A stretch of 64,000 nt of DNA from Bacteroidales bacterium. Its GTDB lineage: Bacteria > Bacteroidota > Bacteroidia > Bacteroidales > G3-4614. The notes beneath the pieces are model-generated. The model was not told the DNA's origin. It saw nothing but the letters and a program-made list of their open reading frames with translations, and ran no database searches. Positions 40,714 through 64,000 of this stretch are shown here, piece after piece (position 1 is the first letter of the stretch; the number at the start of each line of letters is the position of its first letter). The stretch spans positions 27,754 through 91,753 of the forward strand of contig JAVVOY010000003.1 of NCBI GenBank assembly GCA_036656055.1, in the 5' to 3' direction. A program made the translations under genes and the position numbers.

Positions 40714-40765
40714 TTGTTGTGATTTTTTTTAATTATTAAATAATAGAAGTTTAAGTAGTAAGGGG

Positions 40766-40848
40766 GCAAAAACGAAATGTACAATTAATATTTTGTAATG
40801 CTATGATAAAGAAAGAGATACAGAAAGAGGGTAAAAAACGAAATGTAC
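40766..40848 (+). repeat. two direct copies of GGGnAAAAACGAAATGTACA, 66 bp apart (candidate transposase end-binding sites)
   Basis: AAAAACGAAATGTACA is found at 40767-40782 and 40833-40848, read directly. Confidence 0.6.
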
Positions 40849-40855
40849 ATTTACT

Positions 40856-40914
40856 TGGATTTTATGTGGATTTTATACCGTAAATCGTGCGGATTATGTG
40901 GATTATTCTTGGAT
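40856..40914 (+). repeat. five phased GGATT motifs (starts 40856, 40867, 40890, 40899, 40910)
   Basis: cttGGATTttatgtGGATTtt...gcGGATTatgtGGATTattcttGGATTgg. Spacings of 11/23/9/11 bp are roughly helical. Confidence 0.5.
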
Positions 40915-41023
40915 TGGACGTAATTATATGTTGATTGCATCCCATTTATGGATGTGTAAGCAACTCATAAACCCAGTTTAAAGGGTTTATATCGGAGGCT
41001 GGGCATAACTTGTTTGTGGGCGT

Positions 41024-41224
41024 TTATAGGGCTTCTATGTCGCGCTGCTTCTTCTCTCTGATAGCCTCGTTGATAAAACGACTGCGATTGTCTGAGCCTT
41101 TTATAAACGCTTGTAAATCGGCATCTAAACGGAAGTTTATATTTACTGTTGCGCCATACTTTGATTTGCGACCTGCCCCAGTCCTTTTGCCTCCTCTTTG
41201 CGGCTTCTCTGCTTGCTTTTCCAT
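41024..41224 (-). CDS. ribbon-helix-helix (CopG/Arc-like) small DNA-binding protein
   Basis: 66 aa. A basic N-terminus RGGKRTGAGRKSKYG, then a beta-strand VNINFRLDADL followed by helices QAFIKG..NRSRFINEAIREK. Confidence 0.45.
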   Translation of the reverse strand: MEKQAEKPQRGGKRTGAGRKSKYGATVNINFRLDADLQAFIKGSDNRSRFINEAIREKKQRDIEAL

Positions 41225-41449
41225 GTTTTATTTATATCTTTGCCCTTGAACAATCCAAAAGAGGGAGGTGGCTCTTATCCACCCCCCTTGAAAGCTACCA
41301 CTTAACCATTACGGTGATAGTTGCTTTTCCGATTTTGAAGCTGATTTTCAATTCTTTAACTTCCATTTTTTTTATCGGTTTTGGATTGTTTTTTCCTACT
41401 CTTTTTGAGGTTTTCGGATGCTCCTTTGTAATCGCTCTCTGATACTCTA

Positions 41450-41608: not shown

Positions 41609-41663
41609 TGTTTGGGAGTGTTTTGGGAGTTGGTTAATCAGTTGGTTAATCAGTTGGTTAACC
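41609..41663 (+). repeat. short tandem repeats: TGTTT(T)GGGAG x2 followed by AGTTGGTTAA(T/C)C x3
   Basis: Read directly. The 12-mers are at 41628-41639, 41640-41651 and 41652-41663. Confidence 0.9.
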
Positions 41664-41860
41664 ATAGGTGTACTTTTACCATACATATAAATATACCCTT
41701 GATTTTAAGTTAATTGAACTTTTGGACGTGTGGGTGTTAAAATCTATACCCCTACGTGCATAGTCAAACAGAGGGGTAATAGCAGTTTAAAGCACTTATA
41801 TATAGCTTGTTACATGGCGTGTATGGGTAGGGTGCGAAAAATATCTTATGCGGGACTTTT

Positions 41861-42592
41861 TTACTCTAAGCGGATTACACCTATGACTGTGGAGAGGCTG
41901 CGTATCTCGGTCTTATATAGGGAAAATGGCGGGTATTGGGGGTTATCAGACTTGCAGATAATTTTATCCTCGTCTCCATCGCATGGCAAAACACGCTTAA
42001 CCATTGCTCCCTGCAGGCTATCTAACACATATACCCTGCCCCACTGAAAAAAGGTTATAGCGCTTATTTTACGGCAAGCCAGCATGTCGCCATTATTATA
42101 CAGGGGTGACATAGAGGATCCGCTGACACGTATGAGATACTCGGCTCCGGCCGCCTCAAAATCCGGTATATTATATCTGATACACTCTGCAAGGGTAACG
42201 TCTGATACGTCGTCTCCGTTATAGCCGGCTATGCAGTCTATGGGTATAAGTGGTATACCGGCATTTTCCGCCATCGGTACAAGGAGGGCAGAGGTAGGAT
42301 TTTTATCTTTTATTGTCGTAGAAGTAGGCTCGGCAGCAATAGAGGGGGTAGTATCGGGGGTATACTCGGCCTTACACATCTCCCCCTCCCCTGTCAAAAG
42401 CCATTCGGGAGATACATCGAGACTTCTCACTATTTTTTCAAGAAATGGGTATTTAGGTATTATACTGGTTTTATATCCTCTTATATTTGCCTCACTTTCA
42501 TCTATAATCCTTGCAAAGACAGTATTTTTACCGTTACCAAAGGTGGTTACAAGATGTGAAATCCTCTCGTGAATAGTACCTAATTTTTCCAT
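41861..42592 (-). CDS. CI/LexA-type phage repressor (N-terminal HTH + C-terminal S24 peptidase domain)
   Basis: N-terminal XRE-like HTH (VFARIIDESEANIRGYKT). The C-terminal domain has the Ser-Lys dyad context RVSGSSMSPLYNNGDML...MVKRV. Confidence 0.85.
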   Translation of the reverse strand: MEKLGTIHERISHLVTTFGNGKNTVFARIIDESEANIRGYKTSIIPKYPFLEKIVRSLDVSPEWLLTGEGEMCKAEYTPDTTPSIAAEPTSTTIKDKNPTSALLVPMAENAGIPLIPIDCIAGYNGDDVSDVTLAECIRYNIPDFEAAGAEYLIRVSGSSMSPLYNNGDMLACRKISAITFFQWGRVYVLDSLQGAMVKRVLPCDGDEDKIICKSDNPQYPPFSLYKTEIRSLSTVIGVIRLE

Positions 42593-42608
42593 ATTATAAA
42601 ATAAAACG

Positions 42609-42628: not shown

Positions 42629-42650
42629 TTCATATATCGAAACATCTCTC

Positions 42651-42709: not shown

Positions 42710-42883
42710 ATGAAGGAGATCATTACAAAACACGGTGAGGTAAGGCAAATTGCCAAACTCATATCTGTCAGCGAGGAGACAACTAAGAATGCCCTTAAAG
42801 GGAGGACAAAATCGGTGCTTGCTGCAAAAATAAGGGCACTTGCAATTGAGCGCGGTGGCGCAGAACTCAACCGAAAAAAGTAA
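42710..42883 (+). CDS. small HTH protein in the Ner/Cro position
   Basis: 57 aa, MKEIITKHGEVRQIAKLISVSEETTKNALKGRTK... It is the first rightward gene opposite the repressor. Start at ATG 42710. Confidence 0.55.
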   Translation: MKEIITKHGEVRQIAKLISVSEETTKNALKGRTKSVLAAKIRALAIERGGAELNRKK

Positions 42884-43593: not shown

Positions 43594-45681
43594 ATGCCGG
43601 AGTTTTATACGGACATAAAAAATAACAGGGCGATTTTGGTTGTAAATTACAGCGAGCTTGTACCGAGATTTTATAGCAGTGTAGCGTCTCTGTGCAACGC
43701 TGTAAGGCGCAGCGAGAAGCGAGGTTATGGATTGCGTCGTATAACGAGGGGTCATAATATGGGGGTGGCACAGATTGAGTATGACAGTTTGCCTATGAAT
43801 GTTAGGGAGCAAATGGATGACCCGCGCCGTGAGGTGCAGGCGGTGGAAGGATTTTATAACTATCTGCTTGACGCGGAGCGTTTTTACATGAATTATATGC
43901 TGCCTGATAACAGGCGTATTGCTGCCGATATACAGGTTAAGTATGCGATTAATGCCTCTACCATTGAGGCCGTTTTGGCTCTTAAAGGCGAAAGGGAGAG
44001 GTTGTTTGCCCGCTGCAATAGGCGTCCAAAAAAGCTATGGGAGGGGTTATGTGCTGATGCAATAAGTTTTAAAGAGATACAGCGCAAGCGTTGGCAGCAT
44101 GAGCATACTTTGCCTGAGAATTATCGCCGGTTTAAGGAGGCGTGTGAGGCGTATGAGTGGGCTAAGGATAAGCAGGTAGCTTATGAGTGTCTTATTAGTG
44201 GCAAGCATATTAGTTGTAGTGTGACGGGTGCGCGTAAGGTGGACACCAAAATGTATAGTCTTTTTGAGAGTTTATTTACCGCTAAGGGATATAAGCCTAA
44301 TTACAAGGATGTTTATGATGAGTATATGGCTTTTTTGCGCGGCGAAAAGGAGATTGTGAGCAATGAGACAGGCGAGGTGTTATCGCCTGCAGAATATAAA
44401 GAGGTGAGTCCTGCAACGGTACGTGCTTATTTGACGCGCTGGGAGAGTAAGGCTGCCACGTTGAGGTTGCGCACAGGTGACCGCCAGAAGTTGATGGGCG
44501 AAACTAAGCCTTATCACAGTATGGCGGAAGCTGAGTATGCAGGAAGCTTATTGAGCGTGGATGATCGACAGCCTCCGTTTGAGTATGGTGACGGTAAGCG
44601 TGTGTGGTTTTATCTTGGCTACGACCTTGGTGCTGATTGTTATACGACAATTGTATGGGGCAGGGACAAGAAAGGTATTATACTTGATTTTTACCGCCAG
44701 ATGGTGCGCAATTATGCCGAGTGGGGTTTGTCTCTGCCTGCAGAATTGGAGGCGGAGAGTAACCTGAACGCGAGCTATAAGGAGACATTTTTGCGTGAGG
44801 GTAATATGTTTGAGTTTGTAAGGATTGAGGCTAATAATGCCCGCGGTAAAAAGATTGAGAACAGAAACCGTGCCATGCGTTATGGTGACGAGAGACGCAG
44901 CGAAGGGTGGATTGCTCGTCCGTTTGCAGGTAGTGAGGCTAACCGTGCGGGGGTGGAGAGGGTTACAGTTTTGCCGTTTGACACTATTGTGGAGCAGACT
45001 TTGCGAAGGTATGAGAAATGGAATAATGACCGCCACCCGCGACATACAGAGATGTCGCGCTGGGAGTTTTTTATGAAGCGACAGAACCCGAATTTAAAGC
45101 CCATTAATTGGTTTGGTATTATACCGTTTCTGGGTATTAAAGTAAAGAGTAGTTGTCACACCGGTATTGTAAGATTGTGTAACAGTGAGTGTTTATTGGG
45201 TATTGACGGTAGGGTTGCAGTTGGTGAGGAGCTTATTGGATTGATGAAGTTAGTAGAGGGCGAGGAATTGACGGTGAGGTATTTGGATGGCAACGACGGT
45301 AAGGTGCTAAAGGCATTTGCTTATATGGGAGAACAGTTTGTTTGCGAGTTGGTACAGAAGCCTATTTACTCTCGCGCAAGGGTTGAGCAGACTGCCGGCG
45401 ATATTGCTAACCGTGAGGTAATGAGTAAGTATGTTGCCACTATTGAGGGGTATGGCAACCGTAGGAAAAAGGGTATTGAGAAGGTTACTGTTATTGAGGG
45501 GGAGAGAAAGAGCGAATACGTAAGCCCTGAATATAGGTTTTTTACCCCGCAAACAGGTGTAACACCAACGGTGGAGAGTGCTACCAACAGTGTCTTTGCA
45601 GAGATTTTACCGGAGGCAACGGACGAGGATTTAAAGGGCGATAAAAGGTCGTTTAAACGGAGTTTTGCAGAAACGTTTTAG
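43594..45681 (+). CDS. Mu A-like DDE transposase
   Basis: 695 aa, comparable to MuA. LLSVDDRQ and IEANNARGKKIENRNRAMRY resemble the integrase-core D and GKIER-type E contexts. It is followed directly by an AAA+ MuB-like gene. Confidence 0.75.
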   Translation: MPEFYTDIKNNRAILVVNYSELVPRFYSSVASLCNAVRRSEKRGYGLRRITRGHNMGVAQIEYDSLPMNVREQMDDPRREVQAVEGFYNYLLDAERFYMNYMLPDNRRIAADIQVKYAINASTIEAVLALKGERERLFARCNRRPKKLWEGLCADAISFKEIQRKRWQHEHTLPENYRRFKEACEAYEWAKDKQVAYECLISGKHISCSVTGARKVDTKMYSLFESLFTAKGYKPNYKDVYDEYMAFLRGEKEIVSNETGEVLSPAEYKEVSPATVRAYLTRWESKAATLRLRTGDRQKLMGETKPYHSMAEAEYAGSLLSVDDRQPPFEYGDGKRVWFYLGYDLGADCYTTIVWGRDKKGIILDFYRQMVRNYAEWGLSLPAELEAESNLNASYKETFLREGNMFEFVRIEANNARGKKIENRNRAMRYGDERRSEGWIARPFAGSEANRAGVERVTVLPFDTIVEQTLRRYEKWNNDRHPRHTEMSRWEFFMKRQNPNLKPINWFGIIPFLGIKVKSSCHTGIVRLCNSECLLGIDGRVAVGEELIGLMKLVEGEELTVRYLDGNDGKVLKAFAYMGEQFVCELVQKPIYSRARVEQTAGDIANREVMSKYVATIEGYGNRRKKGIEKVTVIEGERKSEYVSPEYRFFTPQTGVTPTVESATNSVFAEILPEATDEDLKGDKRSFKRSFAETF

Positions 45682-45710: not shown

Positions 45711-46610
45711 ATGAATACTACTAAGGAGTTTAAGGAGAAGGTAACAGAGGCTTTGCTAAGGGTAAGGCAGATGTTTGACGGCAGTGATGCTATGTTTGCC
45801 AAACAGCAGGGGTTGAGTGCTGCGGTATTCTCGCGCCTGAAGGGTGGCGAAACGGAGCGGATTATAAGTGAGGCGCAGTGGCTGAATATTGGCAGGCGTT
45901 TAGGTGTTACGATGTGCGAGAGGCGGTGGAATATAGCGAGGACGGATGTTTTTAACACAATAGAGGAGGAGGTTTTGTTTTGCGCAGAGAACAGCAAAGC
46001 CCGTATATTTATCGACGACTGCGGTATTGGTAAGACGTTTACGGCTAAGTATATGAGCCGTAATGTTAAGAACTGTTTTTATATAGATGCGAGCCAATGT
46101 AAAACGAAGAATAAGTTTATACGCTTGTTGGCGCGCACACTTGGTGTTGACGGCAACGGTACGTTAACAGATGTATTGGAGGGGATAAAGTATTATTTGA
46201 CTACTCTGCCGCGTCCGGTGGTGATAATTGATGAGGCGGGGGATATGGAGTATTCTGCTTTTTTGGAGATAAAAGCCTTATGGAACGCTACGGAGGGCGT
46301 GTGTGGGTGGTATATGATTGGCGCGGACGGCTTGGCTGCTAAGATAGAGAGGGGTATTGTTGGCCGTAAGGTTGGTTTTAGGGAGATTTTTAGCCGTTTT
46401 AGTGAGAAATATAGTAAGGTTACGCCTGTGGATAAACAGGAGCGTAAACAGTTTTACAGGAAGTTAATTGGTGATGTATTGGCTGCCAACACTGTGGATA
46501 AGGAGTTGATACCTGAGATTGTTAACAAATGCCTTATACAGGTAGACGGTAATATTGGTGGCTTGAGACGCGCAGAGTCTCTGTTGTTGTTAATGAGGGG
46601 GGGCATATAA
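45711..46610 (+). CDS. MuB-like AAA+ ATPase (transposition target-capture protein)
   Basis: Walker A FIDDCGIGKTFTAKY and Walker B VVIIDEAGD, an N-terminal HTH-like region, and position immediately after the transposase. Confidence 0.7.
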   Translation: MNTTKEFKEKVTEALLRVRQMFDGSDAMFAKQQGLSAAVFSRLKGGETERIISEAQWLNIGRRLGVTMCERRWNIARTDVFNTIEEEVLFCAENSKARIFIDDCGIGKTFTAKYMSRNVKNCFYIDASQCKTKNKFIRLLARTLGVDGNGTLTDVLEGIKYYLTTLPRPVVIIDEAGDMEYSAFLEIKALWNATEGVCGWYMIGADGLAAKIERGIVGRKVGFREIFSRFSEKYSKVTPVDKQERKQFYRKLIGDVLAANTVDKELIPEIVNKCLIQVDGNIGGLRRAESLLLLMRGGI

Positions 46611-47278
46611 TGGGTAAGCTAAAGTCTATATCTATAAGTAATTTGTATAGCAAGAGATTTGCTGCTATGCCTCTTGCTACAGGTGTGTTTGGAGATGTGC
46701 TTGGTTGTGGTACGGATGCTATTCCTAAGGGGGGAGTGTGGCTTATACACGGGGACGAAAAACAGGGTAAAACAACGCTGTGTTTGTTGTTGGCTAACTA
46801 TTTGGCGCAGAGTAATAAGGTGGTTTATATACAGGCGGAGCAGAGTTGCAACGTGTTTGATATTGACAAGATTTTTGTTGAGGCGATGCAGCGGGTTGGT
46901 ATAGGTAGTGATAAGAGGTCTTTGTCTTTTTTTGGAGATATTACCCCCGCTGAATTGACGGAGGTATTGGGGCGCAAACGGTCTGCTGATATTGTTTTTA
47001 TTGATAATATAACGTTTGCCGAGTGGGTAGATACGCGGTTGGTGAGGGGACTTACTAAGAGGTTTCCGCGCAAGACGTTTGTTTACGTGGCGCATAACGA
47101 CCGAAATGGCGACCCTAACGGCACCACCGGCAAGGCGATTAAACGGCTTGCTAATACGGTGTTTGTTGTTGATGCTTTGCGCTGTAAGGTTTTTGGGCGT
47201 GGCAGCTGGGGTGGCACGGTTAATATTGACGCACAGGCGGGGCGTGTGATGTATGGTGGTGAGGGTATTAATGATTAA
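46610..47278 (+). CDS. RecA/KaiC-fold P-loop NTPase (function unknown)
   Basis: Walker A GDEKQGKTT and Walker B-like IVFIDNITF. ATG overlaps the upstream TAA. Confidence 0.5.
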   Translation: MGKLKSISISNLYSKRFAAMPLATGVFGDVLGCGTDAIPKGGVWLIHGDEKQGKTTLCLLLANYLAQSNKVVYIQAEQSCNVFDIDKIFVEAMQRVGIGSDKRSLSFFGDITPAELTEVLGRKRSADIVFIDNITFAEWVDTRLVRGLTKRFPRKTFVYVAHNDRNGDPNGTTGKAIKRLANTVFVVDALRCKVFGRGSWGGTVNIDAQAGRVMYGGEGIND

Positions 47279-47289: not shown

Positions 47290-47724
47290 ATGGAGACAAC
47301 GATTAATAAGAGGGCGCAGCTGCTACGCAGGGTGCATGTGTTGTTTGGCAACCTTGCAATGGGTGAGAGTGACAGGCTTGCGGTTTTGGGTGGCTATGGG
47401 GTGGTGAGTTGCCGTGAGCTTACGGATGTGGCTCTGTTGGATTTGTGTGTGCTACTGGGTATGTTGGATAGGGGTAGGCGCACGGAGGTGGATTTGTGGC
47501 GTAAGCGCGTTATGGCAGCGATTGGCGGGTTGTTGCGCGAGGAAGGGAGAGAATGCAGTGCGAGGGTTATTATCTCTATTGCCTGCCGTGCGGCGGGGGT
47601 ACAGGATTTTAATCGTATAGGGGTTGACCGCTTAAGGAGCCTTTATAATGCGTTTACTAAGCGCGGGCGCGACCTGCGTGAGGTATCGGCGGTTATGGAG
47701 GAGGTATTGATGGGTATGCTGTAA
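47290..47724 (+). CDS. GemA/Mu gp16-like regulatory protein (DUF1018-like)
   Basis: The pattern KRAQLLRRVHVLFGNLAM...LGGYGVVSCRELTDVALLDL matches my recollection of the gp16 family. Confidence 0.45.
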   Translation: METTINKRAQLLRRVHVLFGNLAMGESDRLAVLGGYGVVSCRELTDVALLDLCVLLGMLDRGRRTEVDLWRKRVMAAIGGLLREEGRECSARVIISIACRAAGVQDFNRIGVDRLRSLYNAFTKRGRDLREVSAVMEEVLMGML

Positions 47725-47776
47725 TTACTAAGAGTACGGAGTAGTGAGATTGTTTAATTTTATAAAAAACAGGGTT

Positions 47777-48469
47777 ATGGAGAATGTTAAGACGGTGACA
47801 ATGACGACTGAGGAGGCTGAGGCTTTTGAGGTGTTTAAACGGAGTGAGGTGGAGCGACGTGAGGCTGAGCGTGTTAGGTGTGAAAGGGAGCGTTACCGCG
47901 AGATTGTGGACGAGGCAATAGGCAGCGCATTACCGCGCCTTACCGGGCTTAGTGAGGCGATTGCGCGGACAAAGAGCGCGGTGATGGGTGAGTTTATGGC
48001 TGCCTTGGAGCTTAAGGGTGGTTTGTATGGGGTGCGTAGTGATCAGCAGTCGCACACGTTTACGAATAGTGCGGGGACGGCGCGGGTGATGATTGGGCAG
48101 TATTATAATGATGATTATAGGGATACGGTGAGTGAGGGTATTGAGATTGTTAAGGGGTATATTGAGAGCTTGGCTAAGGATGACAACAGCCGTGCGCTTG
48201 TGGGGGCGGTGTTGCGCCTGCTGGCGCGTGATGCTAAGGGCACGCTTAAGGCGAGCCGTGTGTTGCAGCTGCGCAAGATGGCTGAAGAGACGGGCGATGT
48301 GCGTTTTTTGGAGGGGGTGAGGATTATTGAGGAGAGTTACCGCCCAACGGCGTCGCGCCGTTTTATACGCGCGGAGATTAAGGGTAAGGATGGCGGATGG
48401 GTGAGTGTGCCGCTGAGTGTGACGGATGTAAGGGAGACGGCAGAGGTTGATAAGCCGGTTGAGGTATGA
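47777..48469 (+). CDS. DUF3164-like Mu-type early protein
   Basis: The C-terminal pattern ...ARDAKGTLKASRVLQLRKM...FIRAEIKGKDGGWVSVPLSVTDV parallels DUF3164 proteins of Mu-like phages as recalled. Start at ATG 47777, because the track start is a GTG. Confidence 0.45.
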   Translation: MENVKTVTMTTEEAEAFEVFKRSEVERREAERVRCERERYREIVDEAIGSALPRLTGLSEAIARTKSAVMGEFMAALELKGGLYGVRSDQQSHTFTNSAGTARVMIGQYYNDDYRDTVSEGIEIVKGYIESLAKDDNSRALVGAVLRLLARDAKGTLKASRVLQLRKMAEETGDVRFLEGVRIIEESYRPTASRRFIRAEIKGKDGGWVSVPLSVTDVRETAEVDKPVEV

Positions 48470-48717
48470 TACGTAAAGAATGGGAGCATAGGCATATTGA
48501 GTTATGTGGTATCTGCAATGGTGCCGGAATCCTCTATCTGTACGATGAGATGGATATCATTCGCCAAAGAGAGGCAAAAGAGGCTGTTTGCCAGTACTGT
48601 AATGGCACCGGCAGGGTGCTTAAAAGCAAAGAGATTGTCATCGAGGTAGAGCCTTTTGATGTTGACAAGTCTAAGCGCGCGGGGCTTGTTAAGAACCGCT
48701 GGGAGGATAAGGTGTAG
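48466..48717 (+). CDS. small DnaJ-type zinc-finger protein
   Basis: Two CxxCxGxG motifs, CGICNGAG and CQYCNGTG. ATGA overlap with the upstream gene. Confidence 0.55.
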   Translation: MIRKEWEHRHIELCGICNGAGILYLYDEMDIIRQREAKEAVCQYCNGTGRVLKSKEIVIEVEPFDVDKSKRAGLVKNRWEDKV

Positions 48718-49853: not shown

Positions 49854-50300
49854 TTATTCTAAGGCTTTGTTTATCTCGTCTTCGATAATATGTGCAACTT
49901 TTTTTGTCAATTCGTGGCTCTCTCCGATAAACTGACGTTTGGGCATGATAAATCCCTTGCCTCTGCCGGCACGCAGACCCTCGTTATGTACACGGGCATA
50001 TGGAGTATTGTTGGTAATAGTTACTTTGCGTGGCTCTGCTTTGTAGTTAATAGCAGAGTAGAGGTGCCGACGACTACTTAATAGTGTGCCGTATTGTCCG
50101 TCCGCCCCCTTGGCTGTACCTATGCGTTTAGAGCGTTTCCAAGGGTGCAGCCCTCCGTCGACAAAACCCCCTTTGCGAAAATTGTCCTGAAAGTGGTTTT
50201 TTGCCTCCTGCCCGGCTTTTACCGGTATTACTCGGACTACGGCTCGCTCTATCTTATCGACGCTTTGATGCAGTCTGTCTCTCCATTGTTCCGGTGTCAT
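49854..50300 (-). CDS. phage virion morphogenesis protein (Mu gpG-like)
   Basis: 148 aa: NFRKGGF...PWK...YARVHNEGLRAGRGKGFIMPKRQFIG, typical of the gpG/tail-completion family. Confidence 0.65.
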   Translation of the reverse strand: MTPEQWRDRLHQSVDKIERAVVRVIPVKAGQEAKNHFQDNFRKGGFVDGGLHPWKRSKRIGTAKGADGQYGTLLSSRRHLYSAINYKAEPRKVTITNNTPYARVHNEGLRAGRGKGFIMPKRQFIGESHELTKKVAHIIEDEINKALE

Positions 50301-50440
50301 TTTTTTTGGTGTTTTGTTTGGTGAATGAATTATTAAATGTATATTTGCCTCCGATTCCGAGTCTATCGGAAGGTGGATGTCCGCTTCGGCGCACTTCTAC
50401 AGCCCTCGCCTCAATAGTCCTACTATTGGGGCGTTGATAT

Positions 50441-51769: not shown

Positions 51770-51777
51770 GCCCCGAT

Positions 51778-53055: not shown

Positions 53056-53057
53056 TT

Positions 53058-53486: not shown

Positions 53487-53509
53487 GATATATTTTATTT
53501 AAACTGTTA

Positions 53510-55060: not shown

Positions 55061-55196
55061 GTTTTCTGCTGTCTTTGCTTAAGTTCTGTAGATCTATTGT
55101 CCCACGCTTTTTTATATTGTCTCAACTCTTTTTCTATTTTTGCGTCGAGGCAAGCCAGTATTTTGTTAAAATTAATAAAGGCATCCATTTTAGTAG

Positions 55197-55661
55197 TTAT
55201 TTGGAAAAACCTTGCTGTACGTATATGTTGTGGTATTTGCGCAGAGCGTTTAAGAAGTCATCTGTTATCTCTTTATCGAAAGATGCTCTATGCTCTATCC
55301 ATTTTTCAAAAGCGATAAAAACGTCTATGGTGCTTACCACATTGGCTTGTTTGTCGAGCTTATCAATAAAAGATGCAAATTTGGCTAACTGATCGGGCAG
55401 ACGACATATAAGTTCCGGATCATTGCTCTCATATATCTGATCGAGCAGTTTGTTTACAGCCGTAAGTGCCTTATTTACGAGTTCCGGGCGTGTTATCTGT
55501 ACGCCGGCTCTAATTGTTGCCCACCGCTCGCTTTCTACCCAGCGCGATATGGTGTTGCGTGAGACGCCGACTTTATCGGCGATGTCGTTTTGCAGCAGCC
55601 CTTGCATGTAATATTGTCGGGCAGCTGTTTTTTTATTTTCTATATCTTTTTTTGTTGCCAT
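55197..55661 (-). CDS. terminase small subunit-like HTH protein
   Basis: N-terminal HTH QNDIADKVGVSRNTISRWV; position upstream of TerL. Confidence 0.55.
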   Translation of the reverse strand: MATKKDIENKKTAARQYYMQGLLQNDIADKVGVSRNTISRWVESERWATIRAGVQITRPELVNKALTAVNKLLDQIYESNDPELICRLPDQLAKFASFIDKLDKQANVVSTIDVFIAFEKWIEHRASFDKEITDDFLNALRKYHNIYVQQGFSK

Positions 55662-55812: not shown

Positions 55813-56691
55813 ATGGCAAAAACATTTATCCTATCCGATGGGACCAGCGTTAACTCACATGGTTTTATTTTAGACCTTACAGGCCTTGATCTGGAGCGGT
55901 TTAGAAAAAACCCCGTTATGCTTTATAACCATGACAGAGACAAGCCTATCGGCAAGTGGCTCGACCTGCGTATCGAGGACAACTGTCTGTTGGCTGATGC
56001 TGATATAGATACAGACGACGTCGTAGGTAGAGAGATAGCCCGCAAAGTAGACAAGGGATACCTTAAAGGGTGTAGTTTAGGGCTGTACATTAAGAGGATG
56101 ACAGACGACTGCCGAGCCGTAGAGGCCGAGCTTGTCGAGGCCAGCATTGTTACTATACCGAGCGACGGCAACGCCGTGTGCCTTTACGATGAAAATAACA
56201 AGCCGACCACGTTTGACGCTGTACGGCTCTCTTTTAATAATAAAAACAAAAAAATGGAAAAAACAGAATTTATGACAGAGCTCTCCGCAGCGTTAGGTCT
56301 TGAGCAAGGCGCTACGGCAGGGGCTGTAAGATTGGCTGTGGAGGCAAAAAATGCCCATATAGCACAGCTTGAGGCTATCATCGCCAAACATGACGAAGAG
56401 AAGATTTCTGCCCTCGTTAACCGTGCGGTGGAGGAGAAAAAAATCGGCGCAGACGAGAAAGAGGCATATACTGCATTGGCAGCCAAAGACTATGCCTCCG
56501 TGGAAAAGATATTGAACTGTAAGCAAGGTGTATTGCCTATTAAGACTCAATTGTCGCGGAGCGTCGACAACAACAAATACGCCGGTAAGACATGGGACGA
56601 GATAGACCGTGCCGGTCGTCTGGCCGAACTTAAGGCCGATGCCCCCGAGATATACAACTCACTTTTTAAAGAAAAATTCGGCTGCAAGTAA
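55813..56691 (+). CDS. prohead protease fused to scaffold (Mu gpI-like)
   Basis: The N-terminal half is HK97-type prohead-protease-like (NPVMLYNHD...PIGKW). The C-terminal half is Ala/Glu/Lys-rich and helical, consistent with a scaffold. Confidence 0.7.
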   Translation: MAKTFILSDGTSVNSHGFILDLTGLDLERFRKNPVMLYNHDRDKPIGKWLDLRIEDNCLLADADIDTDDVVGREIARKVDKGYLKGCSLGLYIKRMTDDCRAVEAELVEASIVTIPSDGNAVCLYDENNKPTTFDAVRLSFNNKNKKMEKTEFMTELSAALGLEQGATAGAVRLAVEAKNAHIAQLEAIIAKHDEEKISALVNRAVEEKKIGADEKEAYTALAAKDYASVEKILNCKQGVLPIKTQLSRSVDNNKYAGKTWDEIDRAGRLAELKADAPEIYNSLFKEKFGCK

Positions 56692-56717: not shown

Positions 56718-57632
56718 ATGGCATTACAAAAAGAAATTTGGATTAATTCGATTGTTGAAGGTTTGCTGACCGACAACTCTTTTGCTTCTCGCTCCATTAA
56801 TCACTCAGCCTTTGTAAACGGCAAGACAGTACACATACCCGGAGCAGGCGCACCACCGAGCGTAACAAAGACACGTGCGTCGGCACTTGCCAACCTTACA
56901 GGGTTGGCAGGCCGTACAGATACAGACCTAACGTACAATATGGAGACTTACTTTGCCGGTCCTGTACTGATAGAGAACCCCGAAACCGTCGAGTTAAGTT
57001 ACGATAAACGCAACAGCGTGCTTAAGAGCTTAAAAACGGCTCTCGCCGATAAATTATATGCAGATTTGATGCTTAATTGGATACCTTCCGGTGCTACCTC
57101 TGTCGCAACATCTGGTGAGAGTATTGCAGCTACTGCTCCATCGGCTACCGGTTACCGTAAAGCATTGACAAAAACAGATATCCGCGCCATCCGCGCACAG
57201 TTTGATAAATGGGATATACCGCAGACAGGCCGCTGCTTGATGTTAGATGCAGATATGTATTCGCAATTGCTGGCAGCCTTAACAGAGACAGAGGCTAACG
57301 CTTTTTTATCCACAGCCAATGCCGCCACAGGTATGATAGGTAAGATATACGGCTTTGACATTTATCTGCGCTCTACTGTATTTGTTACTACCGCTACAGG
57401 AGGTAAAAAAGCCGGTAATGCTGCCGCAACAGATTGTGCGGCAGGGTTTGCATGGAGCTCTGAGTGCGTGAGTGTGGCTCTCGGTAATGTAGAGATAAAT
57501 GATAACGAGTCGGATGCGATCGCTTTTGGCGATATACTTTCCGCGACTGTACGTGCTGGCGGTAGTTATGTGAGACAAGACAAAAAAGGGATTGTAGTTA
57601 TATACCAGGCTACAGCTGCTAACCCTGCGTAA
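56718..57632 (+). CDS. major capsid protein
   Basis: 304 aa, immediately after the protease-scaffold gene. Called on composition and position. Confidence 0.65.
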   Translation: MALQKEIWINSIVEGLLTDNSFASRSINHSAFVNGKTVHIPGAGAPPSVTKTRASALANLTGLAGRTDTDLTYNMETYFAGPVLIENPETVELSYDKRNSVLKSLKTALADKLYADLMLNWIPSGATSVATSGESIAATAPSATGYRKALTKTDIRAIRAQFDKWDIPQTGRCLMLDADMYSQLLAALTETEANAFLSTANAATGMIGKIYGFDIYLRSTVFVTTATGGKKAGNAAATDCAAGFAWSSECVSVALGNVEINDNESDAIAFGDILSATVRAGGSYVRQDKKGIVVIYQATAANPA

Positions 57633-57789: not shown

Positions 57790-59019
57790 ATGGCTTTAAA
57801 CGATATAAAATTTAAAAAACAAAATGGTGGCATGGCTCGTAAGTCTGCCAACGAAGATCCTGTAAGTGGTCTGTTGCTCGGTCTTAACAATACAATATCT
57901 GCTGAGAGCACGGCGCTGGCGGCGTTCGACCAGATTGACGTTGGAGGCAACAAGATCTACATTGCCGCTATTAAATACAAAGAGCAGGCAGAGGCGTTTG
58001 GTATAACGACTACCACGTCTGACCCGTCCAACGAGCAAAAGGCAATTAATTTTATTGCTTACCATGTAAGTGAGTTTTTCACGGCATCGCCAAGTGGGAC
58101 TCTTTATCTTGCAATTAAATTGTCCGGTGATATATTACCAAAAGAGATTGCAGCCCTACAAAACTACACCGGAGGTGCGATACGCCAGATGGGTATTGCT
58201 GCCGGCGGTGCAACATCTATTACTGCGGCACAATTAGGCGAATATCAGACGGCAGCCGGCGACCTTGAACAAAACCACATGCCGCTTAGCATTATAGTGG
58301 CTTTATGCAAAGGAGCTATGGCTGATTTAGCATCTCTTACAGGTCTTAACTTATCGCAGGCAGGTCTTCAAAATGTGAGTGTTGTAGTAGCGCAAGATTT
58401 AGACGCGTCACTCCTTAACGAGCAAAGCGTAGGTAAACTTAACGAGATAGCTGCTATCGGTACGTTGCTCGGGTGCGTGAGTTGTGCCGCAGTAAACGAG
58501 TCGGTAGCTTGGGTGCAAAAGTTCCCCATAACAGCAACTTTACCCGGCTTAATAACGGGCGAGGAGTTAAAAGAGACATCGATAGCAACGCTTAACCTGC
58601 TTAATGATAACAGATATATCTTTTGGCGTAGACATGTGGGAGCGTCGTTTGTGTATTGGAACGATAGTCATACGCTAGATGTAGCCACGTCCGACTATGC
58701 TTACATAGAAAATGTGCGGACCATGGATAAAGCTACGCGCGGCATACGCGCTAACTTATTACCCTACCTGGCAGCCCCGCTTAAAGTGGATGCCGAAAGC
58801 GGCAATTTGGGGAGGGATACCGTAGCCGTGCTTGAGACTGTTGCCGGTGCAGCCCTCGAAGATATGGAGAAATTGGGCGAGTTGAGCGGATATAGCGTCA
58901 GCATAGACCCGGAACAGGATATACTCTCTACATCGACAGTAGAGGTGGTAATAAAAAATGTACCGATGGGTGTAATGCGCACGGTAAGTATTAAGATAGG
59001 ATTTGCAACTAAACTTTAA
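57790..59019 (+). CDS. tail sheath-like protein
   Basis: 409 aa, followed by a 144-aa tube-sized gene, a chaperone pair and the tape measure gene. Called by synteny. Confidence 0.5.
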   Translation: MALNDIKFKKQNGGMARKSANEDPVSGLLLGLNNTISAESTALAAFDQIDVGGNKIYIAAIKYKEQAEAFGITTTTSDPSNEQKAINFIAYHVSEFFTASPSGTLYLAIKLSGDILPKEIAALQNYTGGAIRQMGIAAGGATSITAAQLGEYQTAAGDLEQNHMPLSIIVALCKGAMADLASLTGLNLSQAGLQNVSVVVAQDLDASLLNEQSVGKLNEIAAIGTLLGCVSCAAVNESVAWVQKFPITATLPGLITGEELKETSIATLNLLNDNRYIFWRRHVGASFVYWNDSHTLDVATSDYAYIENVRTMDKATRGIRANLLPYLAAPLKVDAESGNLGRDTVAVLETVAGAALEDMEKLGELSGYSVSIDPEQDILSTSTVEVVIKNVPMGVMRTVSIKIGFATKL

Positions 59020-59031: not shown

Positions 59032-59466
59032 ATGAATGGAATACCATTAATTAACGGAACAGAGTATAGTTGGGGTGATATAGTATGCACTATTGCAGGT
59101 ATGCCCGTAACCGGCATAACAGGGGTGGAATATGGCGACGAGCAGGAAGTAGTAGACAACTACGGAGCTGGGCGTTACCCTGTCAGTCGCAGTAAGGGGC
59201 GAATAACCTGCTCCGCCAAACTTACACTCTACGCATCTGAGGTAGCAGCACTGACAAAAAAGACGCTAAATGGGCGTCTGCAAGATTTGGCAGCTTTTGA
59301 TGTGATTGTATCATATATCCCCTTAGATGGTGGCGTGGTAGTTATCGACAAGTTGCGTAACTGTCAGTTTAAAAAGAATTCCCGCTCTTGGAGCGAGGGA
59401 GACACATCTAAGACGGTGGATTTGGATTTGGCAGTAAGCCATATTGAGTGGGGCAACGGAATTTAA
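59032..59466 (+). CDS. tail tube-like protein
   Basis: 144 aa; called by synteny with the sheath and chaperone genes. Confidence 0.5.
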   Translation: MNGIPLINGTEYSWGDIVCTIAGMPVTGITGVEYGDEQEVVDNYGAGRYPVSRSKGRITCSAKLTLYASEVAALTKKTLNGRLQDLAAFDVIVSYIPLDGGVVVIDKLRNCQFKKNSRSWSEGDTSKTVDLDLAVSHIEWGNGI

Positions 59467-59511: not shown

Positions 59512-59772
59512 ATGAAAAAAGAGATAGAGATAATAGTAAAAGACGGCGACGAGACTTACTCTTGTACAGTCCGTCGTCCTGATGTGGCGACCTTGAGCAG
59601 AGTAAACAAACTTAACAAAGCTGACGAGGTATTGGCGGCACAAGAGATGCTTAAAGGGTGTTGGGTGAGTGGATCTGCCGAGATACAAAACGATGCCTAC
59701 CTGCTTATGGCGGTGGTGAGCAAAATGGGTGCCTTGCAGGAGGGGGTAGAGGCTGAGATAAAAAACTCGTAG
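59512..59772 (+). CDS. tail assembly chaperone (G-type, 0-frame product)
   Basis: 86 aa, immediately upstream of the tape measure gene, ending just after a slippery heptamer. Confidence 0.65.
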   Translation: MKKEIEIIVKDGDETYSCTVRRPDVATLSRVNKLNKADEVLAAQEMLKGCWVSGSAEIQNDAYLLMAVVSKMGALQEGVEAEIKNS

Positions 59773-59990
59773 AGGTATTCGCCATTGGTGCGGATACCGA
59801 CAATAAGGGTGACGAACTGCTTAAAATGAATGCTTTGATACGAGCTAATTTAAATCTTGACCCGCAGAGATTGAACGAGATGGAGTACGCCGAAGCCTAT
59901 GCCGAGGCTATATGGTTGGAGAGCTTCCGCCTGCGAAACCAAGCGGAGATGTTAGCAACTATATTCGGGGGAAAAAAGAAAGAGAAATAA
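59512..59990 (+). CDS. tail assembly chaperone GT-type product via -1 programmed frameshift at 59760-59766
   Basis: A_AAA_AAC is in the correct phase (codons ATA AAA AAC TCG TAG). The -1 frame stays open for 74 further codons to the TAA at 59988-59990. Confidence 0.55.
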
Positions 59991-60016: not shown

Positions 60017-60181
60017 TTATTTGCGGCGTATCATACGGAAAATACCCTCTATAGAGCAATCTCCGCCATCGTCATACTTGTCTCCTTTCCACCAATCCCT
60101 GATACACTCTACAACGGTTATAATAAGCCCTAAAATCGCCCCGAAAAATATAATTCCTGCAATAATTCTTCCTATTATCAT
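60017..60181 (-). CDS. 54-aa single-TM protein encoded antisense within the tail module (moron candidate)
   Basis: Manual translation: MIIGRIIAGIIFFGAILGLIITVVECIRDWWKGDKYDDGGDCSIEGIFRMIRRK. A minus-strand TATATTTG box at 60206-60213 lies 25 nt upstream. Below the ORF-track length cutoff. Confidence 0.4.
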   Translation of the reverse strand: MIIGRIIAGIIFFGAILGLIITVVECIRDWWKGDKYDDGGDCSIEGIFRMIRRK

Positions 60182-60231: not shown

Positions 60232-62277
60232 ATGGCAGATAATACCGTAAATTTTACATTAAATCTCAATGGCAATGCTTATAATGGGATATTACAACTC
60301 GATGATGCTGTAAAAAAGGTCGTAGAAAGCGTTGGAGATGCTTCGTCGGGATTTAAAAAAATGGCGACTTATGCTCTTCGTTTTGATGTAATTACTAATA
60401 TGCTTGACAAAGTCTCGCAAGGGATTAACTCAACCATACAGCCTGGTATTGCACTCAACGCCTCATTGCAAGACCTAAGCGCTATAACGGGTGTTACGGG
60501 TAACGGGCTCAAAGAGATAGAGGGATATGCGAGACAAACGGCAAAGACGTTTGGTGTAGATGCGGCACAGGCTGTTGATAGCTACAAATTGGTCTTGTCG
60601 CAGTTGTCGCCGGAGATAGCTAAAGCCCCGGCGGCCTTGCAAGCCATGGGTAAGCATATCGCTACGCTTAGTAAAACCATGGGGGGCGATACTGCGGCGG
60701 CCACAGAAGTGCTTACCACCGCCATGAACCAATTCCAGATATCAACCACCGACCCCATTAAAGCTGCCGATACAATGGCGGAGATGATGAACGTTATGGC
60801 GGCAGCTGCCAAAGAGGGGGCTGCCGAGTTGCCACAGATTAAACAGGCGTTGGAACAGGCCGGTATGGCAGCCAAAGGTGCTGGTGTCTCTTTTGAGGAG
60901 GCCAACGCAGCGATACAGGTATTGGATAAGGCAGGCAAGAAGGGGGCAGAGGGCGGTGTGGCTTTGCGTAATGTTATGAATATCCTCTCTCGCGGTAGAT
61001 TTTTGCCGAAAGATGTACAAGATGAGCTGCAAGCTGCCGGCGTAGATATTAACAGCCTAACAGATAAAAGCAAAAAGTTGTCGGATAGGCTGCGGCCTCT
61101 ACAAACGGTTTTGGGCGATTCGGCATTGTTGTCCAAACTATTCGGGATGGAAAATACCAACGCTGCTATGGCATTGATATCGGGCATTGATGAAGTGGAT
61201 CGCTACACCGAAGCAATAACAGGTAGTAACACTGCCGTAGAGCAAGCCGCAACCGTAATGGAGAGTTACGCCGAACGCCAGGCGAGGGTGAAGGCGAGGT
61301 TTGACGACTTAAAGATTTCAATTTTTAACCTTATCGGAGATTTCGGCATTTGGACCGAGGTAATAGCCGGGGCGTTAATACCGTTAGCTCAGCTCTCACC
61401 TATATTTATAGCCGTAGGTAAATTGATAAAATTGTGTACAATCCATTGGTCCGGGTTTGTGGCCGCCATACGTAGCGGTATAGCTAAAGTAGTGGCGAGA
61501 TTAGTAGCACTAAAGATTTCTGTCGCCGCCGCCGGAGGTTTGTTCGGGTGGCTTAAGATAACAGCAATAGCAGCCTGTCGCTCCATATCGGTAGCCATAG
61601 GCAGCATACCTATCGTGGGTTGGATAGCGGTAGCTATTACTGCTTTAGGGTCGTTGGTGGCATATCTCTACACTAAATTTGAGGGTATAAAGGGGTGGTT
61701 AGACGGTGTAGGATCTGCGATAGTTATGCTTACCGGACCGCTTGGCATAATAATAAATATCGTTACAAGTTTTGCAAAGCATTGGGAGAGTATAAAAACG
61801 GCTTTTACTGACGGCGGTATTTTGGCAGGGATAAAGCGTATCGGATATGTACTTATAGATGCCTTTCTTAAACCTATTCAGGCATTTTTAGAACTATTGG
61901 CAAAGATACCCGGTATGGGCAAAATTGTTGCAAAGCCGACACAATATGTGGCTAAACTGCGTGAGAGTCTCGACAAAGCTACGACCGTAGACAAAAAAGG
62001 GGTAGATACAACTGCTGCGACATCTGTCCTCGGTAATGGCAAAAAAGATAAAGAGACACAAATGCTCGGTAATGGCAAAAAAGACTTAAGCGGCGGCTCT
62101 TTGGGTGGTGTTGCCGGCAGCGGAGCAGGAAAAGTACAGACGATAAACATCACCCTTAAAAGCATGGTGGAGACAATTAATTTCAACGGTGGTTTGCGCG
62201 AAAATACTCGCGAAGTGGAGGCTGTCCTCAGCGAGCAGATGGCGCGCATATTGGGTATGGCGTCTACAAGCGCATAA
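60232..62277 (+). CDS. tail tape measure protein
   Basis: 681 aa, Ala/Gly-rich and helical, with central hydrophobic segments. Position is after the chaperone pair. Confidence 0.8.
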   Translation: MADNTVNFTLNLNGNAYNGILQLDDAVKKVVESVGDASSGFKKMATYALRFDVITNMLDKVSQGINSTIQPGIALNASLQDLSAITGVTGNGLKEIEGYARQTAKTFGVDAAQAVDSYKLVLSQLSPEIAKAPAALQAMGKHIATLSKTMGGDTAAATEVLTTAMNQFQISTTDPIKAADTMAEMMNVMAAAAKEGAAELPQIKQALEQAGMAAKGAGVSFEEANAAIQVLDKAGKKGAEGGVALRNVMNILSRGRFLPKDVQDELQAAGVDINSLTDKSKKLSDRLRPLQTVLGDSALLSKLFGMENTNAAMALISGIDEVDRYTEAITGSNTAVEQAATVMESYAERQARVKARFDDLKISIFNLIGDFGIWTEVIAGALIPLAQLSPIFIAVGKLIKLCTIHWSGFVAAIRSGIAKVVARLVALKISVAAAGGLFGWLKITAIAACRSISVAIGSIPIVGWIAVAITALGSLVAYLYTKFEGIKGWLDGVGSAIVMLTGPLGIIINIVTSFAKHWESIKTAFTDGGILAGIKRIGYVLIDAFLKPIQAFLELLAKIPGMGKIVAKPTQYVAKLRESLDKATTVDKKGVDTTAATSVLGNGKKDKETQMLGNGKKDLSGGSLGGVAGSGAGKVQTINITLKSMVETINFNGGLRENTREVEAVLSEQMARILGMASTSA

Positions 62278-62298
62278 ATATAAAGGAGAGATAGAGAT

Positions 62299-62934
62299 AT
62301 GATTAATTTACGATTGATGCCGGCAACGATAGCCACGGCTGGAAAATATTTTATTTCTGCTTTGCGTGTGGAGCGTTTGCCACCTAACCGTTCGGGGTCT
62401 GAGGACGAGGCCGAGCTTTTATCTCAGCAGAACGCCGAGATGCCTTACCCTCTTGTGTCGGGTAACGACCTATATGGTCGCAGTCTGATAGTGCCGCTCT
62501 ATTTGCGTAGTACGAGCGACGAGATCTATTTTCCTGAAGCGGTGGTAAGCGTCAGTCGTGCCCGAAACATAGTGACTACTCCGGTGCTTAACGGCCGCGG
62601 AACAGTAAAGGAATTAATAACTGATGGAGATATAGAGCTATCGTTATCGTTGGCCGTGGTGAGTACTGCCGACGACGGTAGTTACGATGCTCCGGCTGCC
62701 TCGGCTGCCGATGTTTACCCGTATAAGGGGGTAGAACGCTTGCGTAAGCTATTGGATACCCCGGAGCGGTTGGATGTGGTGAGCGATTTTTTGGCTCTAT
62801 TTGACCTCGACGGCGGGGATTTTGGAATTGTAATTAAAAACTATAAGGTACAACAGGATACACACCTCAACCGTCAGGTTTTTGAGGTTGAAGCCTTGAG
62901 TGATTATGATTATGACCTTTTAATTAAAGATTAG
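62299..62934 (+). CDS. tail/baseplate-associated protein (unknown family)
   Basis: 211 aa, directly after the tape measure gene. Confidence 0.4.
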   Translation: MINLRLMPATIATAGKYFISALRVERLPPNRSGSEDEAELLSQQNAEMPYPLVSGNDLYGRSLIVPLYLRSTSDEIYFPEAVVSVSRARNIVTTPVLNGRGTVKELITDGDIELSLSLAVVSTADDGSYDAPAASAADVYPYKGVERLRKLLDTPERLDVVSDFLALFDLDGGDFGIVIKNYKVQQDTHLNRQVFEVEALSDYDYDLLIKD

Positions 62935-62935
62935 G

Positions 62936-63886
62936 ATGTATAGTCTTGTTTGGCATATAACTATCGGGGAATATAGACTTAAAACTCTTAAGTCGGTAAA
63001 GATATCTGCATCGGTACTCAACTTGAGTGACACGGCAAGGATAGAGTTGCCTGCGCAATACTTAAACACGTGGCAAAAGATAGAGGATAAGATAAAGACC
63101 GGAGACGAGGTATGTATAGATCTTGGATATGGTAACAGCGTTAAAACTGAGTTTAAAGGGTTTTTAAAACGCATCTCACGCGACAATAATACTCTTGTAT
63201 TGGAGTGCGAAGATGCTCTATATTTACTTAATGTTGCAGTCGCAGACAAAGAATACAAAGAGGTAACGCTTAATAGTCTTATAGGTGATATACTCTCGCA
63301 AGTGGATGGTACGCTGATAGTGGTGTGCGACTATAACTACATATTTAAAAAATTTGTCGTCTTCCATCAAACGGCCCTCGACATCATTAAAAAAATACAC
63401 GAAGAGACAAAGGCTAATATCTGGTTCGAAGACAAGACACTACATATACATCCTGTGTATACCGAAAAGCGCGACGAAGAGGCTATTATATTTGATACAG
63501 CAGTTAATGTTCTGAGCAACGCCCTTAAATGGGTTACCGCAGGCGACAAAAAAGTGCAGATAGAAGTAGTCCTCAAACAGGCGGATGGTGCGATAAAGAA
63601 AAAGGCCTACGGTGATACCGGAGGCTCTAAAGTAACGAAAATAATTAACGGTAGCAGCGAAACCGATATGCAAACTGCTGCCGAAAATGAATATAACTTA
63701 TGGAACTACGATGGCTTTGAGGGTAACTTCACGGCTTGGCTTATTCCGAGAGTGATAGCAGGCACAAGTGTGCGCCTGCGCGACACAGGGAAGCCCGAGG
63801 GGAAATACTATGTTACAGGCATAGATATAGAGTTCGGGAGTTCCGGCGCAAAGCGTAAAATAACGTTGGGGCGAAAGTTGTCTTGA
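62936..63886 (+). CDS. baseplate hub / late control D-like (gpD, Mu gp44, XkdQ-like) protein
   Basis: 316 aa. Position and size fit the hub protein that follows the tape measure region in contractile-tail phages. Weak sequence recollection only. Confidence 0.4.
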   Translation: MYSLVWHITIGEYRLKTLKSVKISASVLNLSDTARIELPAQYLNTWQKIEDKIKTGDEVCIDLGYGNSVKTEFKGFLKRISRDNNTLVLECEDALYLLNVAVADKEYKEVTLNSLIGDILSQVDGTLIVVCDYNYIFKKFVVFHQTALDIIKKIHEETKANIWFEDKTLHIHPVYTEKRDEEAIIFDTAVNVLSNALKWVTAGDKKVQIEVVLKQADGAIKKKAYGDTGGSKVTKIINGSSETDMQTAAENEYNLWNYDGFEGNFTAWLIPRVIAGTSVRLRDTGKPEGKYYVTGIDIEFGSSGAKRKITLGRKLS

Positions 63887-63922
63887 CAACGGAGGGTTGC
63901 AATAGGCGGTAAGACAGGGAAA

Positions 63923-64000
63923 GGCATCGACGAACTGAATAGTGAAGTCCTCGAAAGAGTCGACAAACTGAATAGTGAAGTCTTCGAAGGCATCGACGAA
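63923..64000 (+). repeat. 33-nt tandem repeats (2.4 units, cut by window end) encoding (G/R)(I/V)D(E/K)LNSEV(L/F)E
   Basis: Units at 63923-63955 and 63956-63988, with a third starting at 63989. Only one plus-strand frame is open. Confidence 0.8.

Follow-up and report, generated by a model that had tools for sequence, protein, structure and literature searches.

A predicted Mu-like transposable prophage in a Bacteroidales genome has a Hankyphage-type left end and a transposase from an unannotated clade

Introduction

Mu-like phages of the Bacteroidales are now recognized to be abundant and active in the gut and to be capable of rearranging the genomes of their hosts. In the DNA analyzed here, a 64,000-nucleotide stretch of contig JAVVOY010000003.1 from a Bacteroidales bacterium (assembly GCA_036656055.1; hereafter the window), the genes change from host to phage directly after a POT/PTR2 transporter gene, and an original prediction made from the sequence alone read what follows as a Mu-like transposable prophage. 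The locus raises the question of whether this element does insert by transposition, which enzyme would carry this out, and how the element relates to Hankyphage, a gut Bacteroides phage whose integration sites are random and bounded by 5-bp repeats (PMC6199706) and which replicates by transposition after its repressor is silenced (PMC12135933). Our analysis bears the prediction out, in that every gene class it listed is present and the left end has the features of a transposon end. The region is very probably the left ~23 kb, about two-thirds, of a temperate phage, distantly related to Hankyphage, that uses DDE (Asp-Asp-Glu)-type transposition in the manner of Mu for integration and, by inference, for replication.

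Results

Left boundary and terminal sites

The open reading frame (ORF) listing and hidden Markov model (HMM) scans show phage genes from just past the transporter gene to the end of the window at 64000; the element itself begins at 40759, 45 nt past the stop codon of the transporter gene (Table 1). G+C content is ~0.39-0.43 in the host part and 0.44-0.48 in the element. The host bases directly 5' of 40759 read ..GTAG, and the first sequences inside the element include two 25-nt direct repeats, L1 and L2, which have the 16-mer AAAAACGAAATGTACA in common as their core; both copies are perfect. The host-side contig of another metagenome-assembled genome (MAG), L005, ends at 40758, and L006 ends at window position 40786; two independent assemblies breaking at or just inside the phage-host junction are consistent with a polymorphic or repeated element in those samples.

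The same tip is found on other elements. The Hankyphage record opens with TAAGGGGGGAGAAACGA and the window from 40759 reads TAAGGGGGCAAAAACGA, 15 of the first 17 nt being identical. L174 has an identical 25-nt tip next to an unrelated flank, L112 and L159 differ from it by one base and again have unrelated flanks, and L143, L140 and L151 read TATGGGGGT at the left tip. In the independent elements L112/L159 and L174, the common sequence begins exactly at TAAGGGGG. Because independent elements with unrelated flanks share sequence from exactly that T, we place the start of the element at 40759 and not at 40715, where it had first been put; the repeats, the stop of L005 and the start of Hankyphage fall in with this position. 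Judged by its sequence, the left boundary is a transposon end and not an attachment (att) site.

Look-ups with the transporter protein and with the 66-amino-acid (aa) protein encoded next to it within the element returned the same transporter junction in all assemblies carrying this phage, and found no other insertion site; a look-up with the repressor protein found no record. Repeats of TTATGTGGATT(T/A)T and of TGGATT are clustered just inside L2, at 40855-40920, and might be bound by a regulator or by a host bending protein.

Table 1. Features of the element and the adjoining host gene, in window coordinates.
Feature	Position	Strand	Evidence or remark
POT/PTR2 transporter gene (host part)	39049-40713		Adjoins element
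Left terminus 5'-TAAGGGGGC and terminal repeat L1	40759-40787	+	25-nt repeat 40763-40787; core 16-mer AAAAACGAAATGTACA 40768-40783
Second site L2	40829-40853	+	Core 40834-40849; same orientation as L1, 66 nt further in
66-aa basic protein	41024-41224	-	ORF; ribbon-helix-helix-like by eye only; marginal PHROG matches only
CI/LexA-type repressor, helix-turn-helix (HTH) and S24 self-cleaving peptidase	41861-42592	-	Peptidase_S24 2.8e-11; phrog_4 transcriptional repressor 4e-24
Small HTH protein, Mu Ner position, first gene of rightward early operon	42710-42883	+	phrog_16858
695-aa MuA/TnsB-fold transposase, putative triad D323/E388/E422	43594-45681	+	Fold match, profile match, residue conservation
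MuB-like AAA+ target-DNA activator, 299 aa	45711-46610	+	phrog_296 'DNA transposition protein' 1.3e-33; AAA_22 4e-10
RecA/KaiC-like ATPase ('helicase' in Hankyphage annotation)	46610-47278	+	phrog_6891 5e-26; weak RecA/RadA matches
144-aa possible GemA-like protein	47290-47724	+	Pairwise BLASTP to Mu GemA only: E 9e-5, 29% over 72 aa
DUF3164 protein, typical of Mu-like early regions	47744-48469	+	PF11363 2.7e-8; phrog_846 1e-30
DnaJ-type CxxCxGxG zinc-finger protein	48466-48717	+	Weak PF00684 match
Mu gpG-like virion morphogenesis protein	49854-50300	-	Phage_tail_S 1e-10
MuF-like head protein	50441-51769	-	Phage_Mu_F 4e-10
Mu-type portal	51778-53055	-	Portal_Mu 2e-67
Mu gp36-like head-completion/adaptor protein	53058-53486	-	Phage_Mu_Gp36 2e-14
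Large terminase TerL	53510-55060	-	phrog_38 3e-68
Small terminase TerS (HTH)	55197-55661	-	Terminase_5, HTH_3 and DUF1804 matches
Prohead protease fused to scaffold, Mu gpI/Z type	55813-56691	+	Peptidase_S78 2e-11 and Mu-like_Pro 8e-6
Major capsid protein	56718-57632	+	phrog_267 6e-35
Tail sheath	57790-59019	+	DUF2586 6e-49; phrog_907 tail sheath 4e-44
Tail tube	59032-59466	+	phrog_4579
Tail chaperone pair G (59512-59772) and GT	59512-59990	+	phrog_19076; -1 frameshift
Tape measure protein	60232-62277	+	PhageMin_Tail 3e-28; phrog_28 1.5e-42
DUF6046 protein and baseplate-hub-like protein	62299-63886	+	HMM matches; element runs on past 64000

End signatures in related phages

The 16-mer AAAAACGAAATGTACA occurs in 45 IMG/VR stretches, in many of them within a few hundred nt of a contig end. 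A merged end pattern gave 20 matches in genomes and 26 in metagenomes, with a chance expectation well below 1 (our rough estimate, not computed by a tool). All 26 metagenome matches and 16 of the 20 genome matches are left- or right-type ends, and the remaining four look like chance. Left-type ends read TA(A/T)GGGGG-N-16-mer and are followed by HTH, transposase and MuB genes; right-type ends read TATAATC(G/A)(C/G)-16-mer-N6-7-second copy. At the right ends of related phages the 16-mer is inverted and stands behind TATAATCGC. As tail genes point to right-type ends and early genes follow left-type ends, the sites are inverted between the two ends of an element. These signatures (left TAWGGGGG-N-AAAAACGAAATGTACA; right TATAATCNN-AAAAACGAAATGTACA) recovered prophage boundaries in three public collections.

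In the relatives, L1 and L2 are ~87-105 nt apart. One complete relative has both ends on a single contig, PHDA01000004.1 (at 464 and 34168), and measures 33,705 bp; its L1 and L2 are separated by 93 nt, its R1 and R2 lie next to each other, and the same ATTT stands as a direct repeat at both flanks, the fifth base differing. Two IMG/VR scans for further left and right end pairs (at least 120 matches each) gave no contig with both ends among the matches listed.

In three sets of loci (L145/L148/L152/L180; L158/L166/L175, with L169 near-identical; and L156/L165), one and the same right end adjoins different host sequences, as transposition predicts. In one Muribaculaceae MAG, contigs L136 and L149 (JAZTZN010000010.1 and JAZTZN010000008.1) end 140 nt inside an identical right end and have different flanks, which points to a single transposable phage present in two copies or at two sites.

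The transposase and its clade

The 695-aa protein has no match in Pfam, PHROGs or NCBIfam, and no PDB sequence match either alone or as a 36-member profile; an hhalign comparison with MuA was also negative. Searches of the 36 relatives against rve, DDE and Mu models at E up to 1 returned nothing except three marginal DDE_Tnp_IS240 matches at E of at least 0.059. An AlphaFold (AF2) model built from the alignment (predicted local distance difference test score 78.5) has an RNase-H-type core and then a beta-barrel. In a Foldseek search with this model, ShCAST TnsB was the top match (1e-13), together with Tn7 TnsB, the Mu transpososome (4FCY, 4e-10) and IstA (1e-9), and retroviral integrases came lower; the best matching entries were 7svw (1e-13), 8ea3, 7pik and 8b4h. 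At the profile level, hhalign aligned the protein with the 'MuA-like transposase' of Hankyphage over 567 columns (98.6%, E 5e-16) and with an eight-member alignment of Hanky-type transposases at 99.8% (E 5e-29), the aligned span across comparisons being ~460-570 columns. Identified by its predicted fold and the Hankyphage profile match only, the protein is supported as a probable MuA/TnsB-type transposase.

The Hanky-type alignment matches D269, D336 and E392 of MuA weakly but correctly, and provides a chain from our protein to MuA. Along this chain, E388 (motif ELEAE) falls at the position of MuA D336, and E422 (GKKIE) at that of E392. For the first Asp, hhalign points to position 333, which is Asp here and Lys in 18 of the 36 relatives, and MAFFT aligns the Hankyphage Asp with D323. 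In a set of 46 sequences reaching down to 18% identity, D323 and E422 never vary, and conservation is 90% or more at E386, E388 and D324. We propose D323/E388/E422 as the putative catalytic triad, with Glu replacing the second Asp. The earlier description of the protein as a DDE transposase has no sequence-family match behind it and draws its support from the Foldseek and hhalign results; the conserved residues appear to read D-E-E.

A full HMMER pass over 1.84 billion representatives, counted as clusters at 50% identity, found 890 clusters of this clade with E values no higher than 1e-3, and 260 with E values no higher than 1e-30. Its named members belong to the Bacteroidota (Bacteroidales, Pedobacter, Pseudopedobacter, Sphingobacterium, Adhaeribacter and Williamwhitmania). 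Outside that phylum, one distant member (P0184; motifs SMDDRD, EVEVEHH and QEKRAEH) comes from a Eubacteriales MAG, and its closest phage records are the unannotated human fecal contigs MT836083, MT837295 and MT837734. Among 50,697 GenBank phage records a D-E-E-type transposase occurs in only three or four unannotated fecal contigs, and a search of the literature on D-E-E transposases found nothing.

Both transposase clades use the ends described above. Hanky-type enzymes, 39-55% identical to that of Hankyphage p00, are found in L112, L151, L143, L119, L099 and L113, and the D-E-E type in the window, in L036 and in other relatives. BLAST-level similarity between the two clades is confined to the N-terminal ~200 aa, which fits a common DNA-binding specificity. 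Where MuB-like queries were run on a locus, they found a MuB-like gene immediately downstream of the transposase match. We put forward tentatively, at slightly under an even chance, that these proteins form a large unannotated MuA-like clade (~890 clusters at 50% identity, found in the Bacteroidota and with a distant branch in a Eubacteriales MAG) which has an Asp-Glu-Glu active site, no Pfam, PHROG or NCBIfam model and no named GenBank phage, and yet the same terminal sequences as the canonical D-D-E enzymes of the Hanky type.

Repressor and early region

The leftward S24 repressor of CI type and the rightward small HTH gene are both present as predicted, on Peptidase_S24, phrog_4 and phrog_16858 matches. 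Homologs of the small HTH protein follow the left end in L112, L111, L121, L143 and L151, and in the window two small ORFs separate its gene from that of the transposase. The MuA-MuB arrangement is likewise confirmed: the MuB-like gene starts 29 nt downstream of the 695-aa gene, and its product contains both motifs on which the reading was based, GIGKTF (Walker A GIGKT) and VVIIDEAGD (Walker B IIDE). A GemA-like and a DUF3164-like gene had also been named here. The second assignment stands on PF11363 and phrog_846; the 144-aa protein has no HMM match, and its likeness to GemA comes solely from the pairwise match at E 9e-5. Beyond the zinc-finger gene the early operon has two further small ORFs (79 and 164 aa).

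The 66-aa protein is annotated as a gene in two other MAGs, beside the same transporter gene. Three tandem 12-nt units of AGTTGGTTAA(T/C)C, possibly a protein-binding array, separate this gene from the repressor gene's 3' end at 41628-41664. The minus strand of the left arm also carries an Rfam DUF805b RNA motif at 41393-41427 (40.1 bits; gathering score 35.6); downstream of it lie a 23-codon ORF and a terminator-like hairpin (41262-41288).

Packaging, head and tail genes

The genes from gpG to TerS (49854-55661) form a block on the minus strand that diverges from the protease gene. All of them except gp36 had been recognized, and the HMM matches agree; the strand had been missed, and the order given, from TerS to gpG, is that of transcription and not that of the map. 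The protease-scaffold, capsid, sheath, tube and tape measure genes were all found by Pfam and PHROG matches. The presence of both sheath and tube indicates a contractile tail. Frameshifting in the G/GT pair agrees with a slippery heptamer, A_AAA_AAC, at 59760-59766 and with a -1 frame that has no stop over 76 codons, up to 59990. The terminase, portal and capsid genes rule out a tailocin or contractile injection system, which had been considered as an identity for the region.

The C-terminal ~195 aa of the MuF-like protein (residues ~250-442; 50441-51030, minus strand) have no counterpart in Hankyphage MuF and gave a sub-threshold CdiA_C match (E 0.002) and nothing significant among PDB sequences; they are reminiscent of toxin or cargo domains fused to MuF. 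Between GT and the tape measure gene, on the opposite strand (~60017-60181), is a 54-aa hydrophobic ORF with the look of a moron, which is annotated as a gene in L001, L002 and L003. In the host part, a SAM-II riboswitch (4831-4889, plus strand; 67 bits) lies upstream of a 428-aa ORF at 4966-6252.

The right side of the element

Data on this copy come from short Logan and NCBI contigs and reach a window-equivalent position of 66.7 kb. Logan contig L001 continues 2.8 kb past the window and encodes two unnamed proteins, an Amidase_2 endolysin, a membrane protein and RRY55_01335, which belongs to the same 94,425-nt MAG contig. The endolysin (phrog_822, 2e-60) and membrane proteins stand amid baseplate and tail genes (L001 11314-13737; window-equivalent ~64.2-66.7 kb). 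A homolog search with the 44-aa fragment at the end of L001 found nothing, and there are no close relatives of this phage in IMG/VR, JGI metagenomes or GenBank phages. From its relatives we predict a whole element of ~30-34 kb, the right end of which should fall ~6-7 kb beyond the baseplate-hub gene. The pattern expected there, downstream of RRY55_01335, is TGTACATTTCGTTTT...(G/C)CGATTATA.

A Pfam scan of 27 proteins from the 23 kb of the element in the window found no integrase family, in agreement with the reported absence of tyrosine and serine integrases. Integration targeted to a tRNA gene is ruled out, the 64-kb window containing no tRNA.

No reverse transcriptase was found in the window or in the 2.8-kb extension. 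Homologs of the reverse transcriptase of the Hankyphage diversity-generating retroelement (30-35% identity) are present in L065, L075, L045, L062, L050, L067 and L040, and in L156 and L165. In phages with a D-E-E transposase they lie in the early region, ~4-7 kb downstream of the transposase gene, and in L156/L165 less than 2 kb from the right end.

Discussion

Consideration of the gene content together with the terminal sites suggests how this phage would move. The N-terminal domains of the transposase may bind the 16-bp sites, because it is there that BLAST-level similarity to the Hanky-type enzymes, which use the same sites, is found. The MuB-like ATPase would deliver target DNA, and the RNase-H-fold core, through D323, E388 and E422, would nick the 3' ends (...TA-3') and join them to staggered positions in the target. 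Self-cleavage of the repressor would derepress the early operon, and repeated rounds of replicative transposition would then be followed by headful packaging.

Several observations weigh against a Mu-like transposable phage. The host junction is identical in every assembly with this phage, so that the mobility of this particular phage stays a prediction. The catalytic residues are assigned by alignment and conservation alone, and members of the clade differ at position 333, where hhalign puts the first Asp. The data on this copy take in about three-quarters of it, short of the right end and of the target-site duplication; the sole relative with both ends has a flanking repeat of 4 nt and not 5 nt; and the termini are TA here, in contrast to TG...CA in Mu.

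One rival explanation is a defective or truncated remnant, in which the Mu-like ancestry is real and transposition or virion formation has been lost. The right arm is outside the data, a single insertion site is seen in four assemblies of one study, and Hankyphages themselves often make defective particles (PMC12135933). However, all 27 genes examined are full length, with no frameshift other than the slip expected in G/GT, both left-end sites are perfect copies, and the MAG contig goes on with more phage genes; we regard a remnant as unlikely. It is much less probable still that the 695-aa protein binds DNA and resembles a transposase but lacks catalytic activity, and that another enzyme moves the element. 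Glu in place of the second Asp, the variability of the canonical first position at 333 and the failure of rve and DDE models to detect any of the 36 members would agree with lost activity, but the retention of D323, E388 and E422 over the divergence of ~890 clusters suggests selection on an active site, the MuB-like gene accompanies the transposase at the loci searched for it, and the visible part of the element has no other recombinase. Least credible of all is a temperate phage that depends on an integrase in its right arm and carries the transposase and MuB genes as a passenger transposon or for replication only: ~7-10 kb of the element, where such a gene could lie, is outside the data, yet the phage boundary itself is a transposon end set against host DNA 45 nt beyond a gene, no tRNA lies in the window, the same tip is found in Hankyphage with its random integration (PMC6199706), and the opposite phage boundary of the relatives bears inverted sites.

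A transposable phage of the Mu type thus remains our preferred reading. As a kind, the element is known; what sets it apart is its contractile tail, its S24 repressor and a transposase of the unannotated D-E-E-type clade. It widens the group beyond Hankyphage-type genomes: ends and packaging machinery are shared, but the tail is contractile and the repressor of the SOS type, and the transposase clade escapes current domain models. As a variation on an enzyme family that has been studied a great deal, the apparent D-E-E active site can be put to the test. If the assignment is true, surveys based on the rve domain would score such phages as 'orphan MuB' and undercount transposable phages, and the two clades would show how, in nature, a single DNA-binding specificity has been joined to two distinct catalytic cores.

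Comparison with known systems

Whether the element is related to Hankyphage had been left open in the original prediction, and the answer differs between parts of the genome. The map of Hankyphage (BK010646) has the same gene order and the same inverted MuF-portal-gp36-TerL-TerS block, and the two phages have in common the left terminus TAAGGGGG, AAACGA-type sites and a Bacteroidales host. In tblastn comparisons, identity to Hankyphage is 53% for MuF (residues 18-247), 52% for gpG, 46% for the small HTH protein (Hankyphage ORF 1876-2076), 39% for TerL, 37% for the portal, 33% for gp36, 31% for TerS, 26% for MuB and 23% for the ATPase (Hankyphage 5645-6322); the zinc-finger protein is 31% identical over 55 aa to an unnamed Hankyphage ORF (9881-10030). 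Kinship is thus seen in packaging and head completion, MuB, the ATPase, the HTH protein, the layout and the termini. In contrast, megablast of the 23-kb element against the 50,697 phage records gave no match, including to p00, and the repressor, the protease, the capsid and the whole tail are unmatched in Hankyphage. The tail has a sheath and tube here, whereas that of Hankyphage is of the flexible Siphoviridae type (PMC6199706), and the transposase is of the D-E-E clade, linked at the profile level only to the canonical D-D-E enzyme of Hankyphage.

Genus-level membership is set at >70% intergenomic similarity to p00 (PMC12135933), and with no nucleotide-level similarity to p00 the element falls outside that genus. 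A 2026 preprint proposes Candidatus Mubacviridae for the Mu-like Bacteroidales phages that include Hankyphage (10.64898/2026.05.11.724261), and the element has the MuA-MuB operon, the conserved TerS-TerL-adaptor module and the Bacteroidales host that mark this group. The definition also takes in a diversity-generating retroelement (reverse transcriptase with a TR/VR pair), for which the window and the 2.8-kb extension gave no reverse transcriptase. That study found transposases through PF00665, PF13333, PF13683 and ISEScan; on our profile results, these three Pfam models would miss the D-E-E clade. By sequence comparison, the element is a mosaic within this wider group: its immunity gene, its head and its tail are different, and its transposase comes from a separate unannotated clade.

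The likeness to Mu extends to the order of the repressor, Ner-position HTH, A and B genes, the DUF3164 and possible GemA genes, the portal, MuF, gp36, gpG and protease-scaffold, the contractile tail, and an L1 site separated from L2 with adjacent R sites, as seen in a relative. The element departs from Mu in its transposase, which has no detectable sequence similarity to MuA and a predicted Glu where MuA has D336, in the inversion of its packaging block and in the S24 type of its repressor. The best structural matches of the transposase model, the TnsB proteins of Tn7 and of type V-K CRISPR-associated transposons and IstA of IS21, have 10-16% sequence identity to it and belong to transposons, not phages, with different end sequences; all of them act with a partner AAA+ ATPase.

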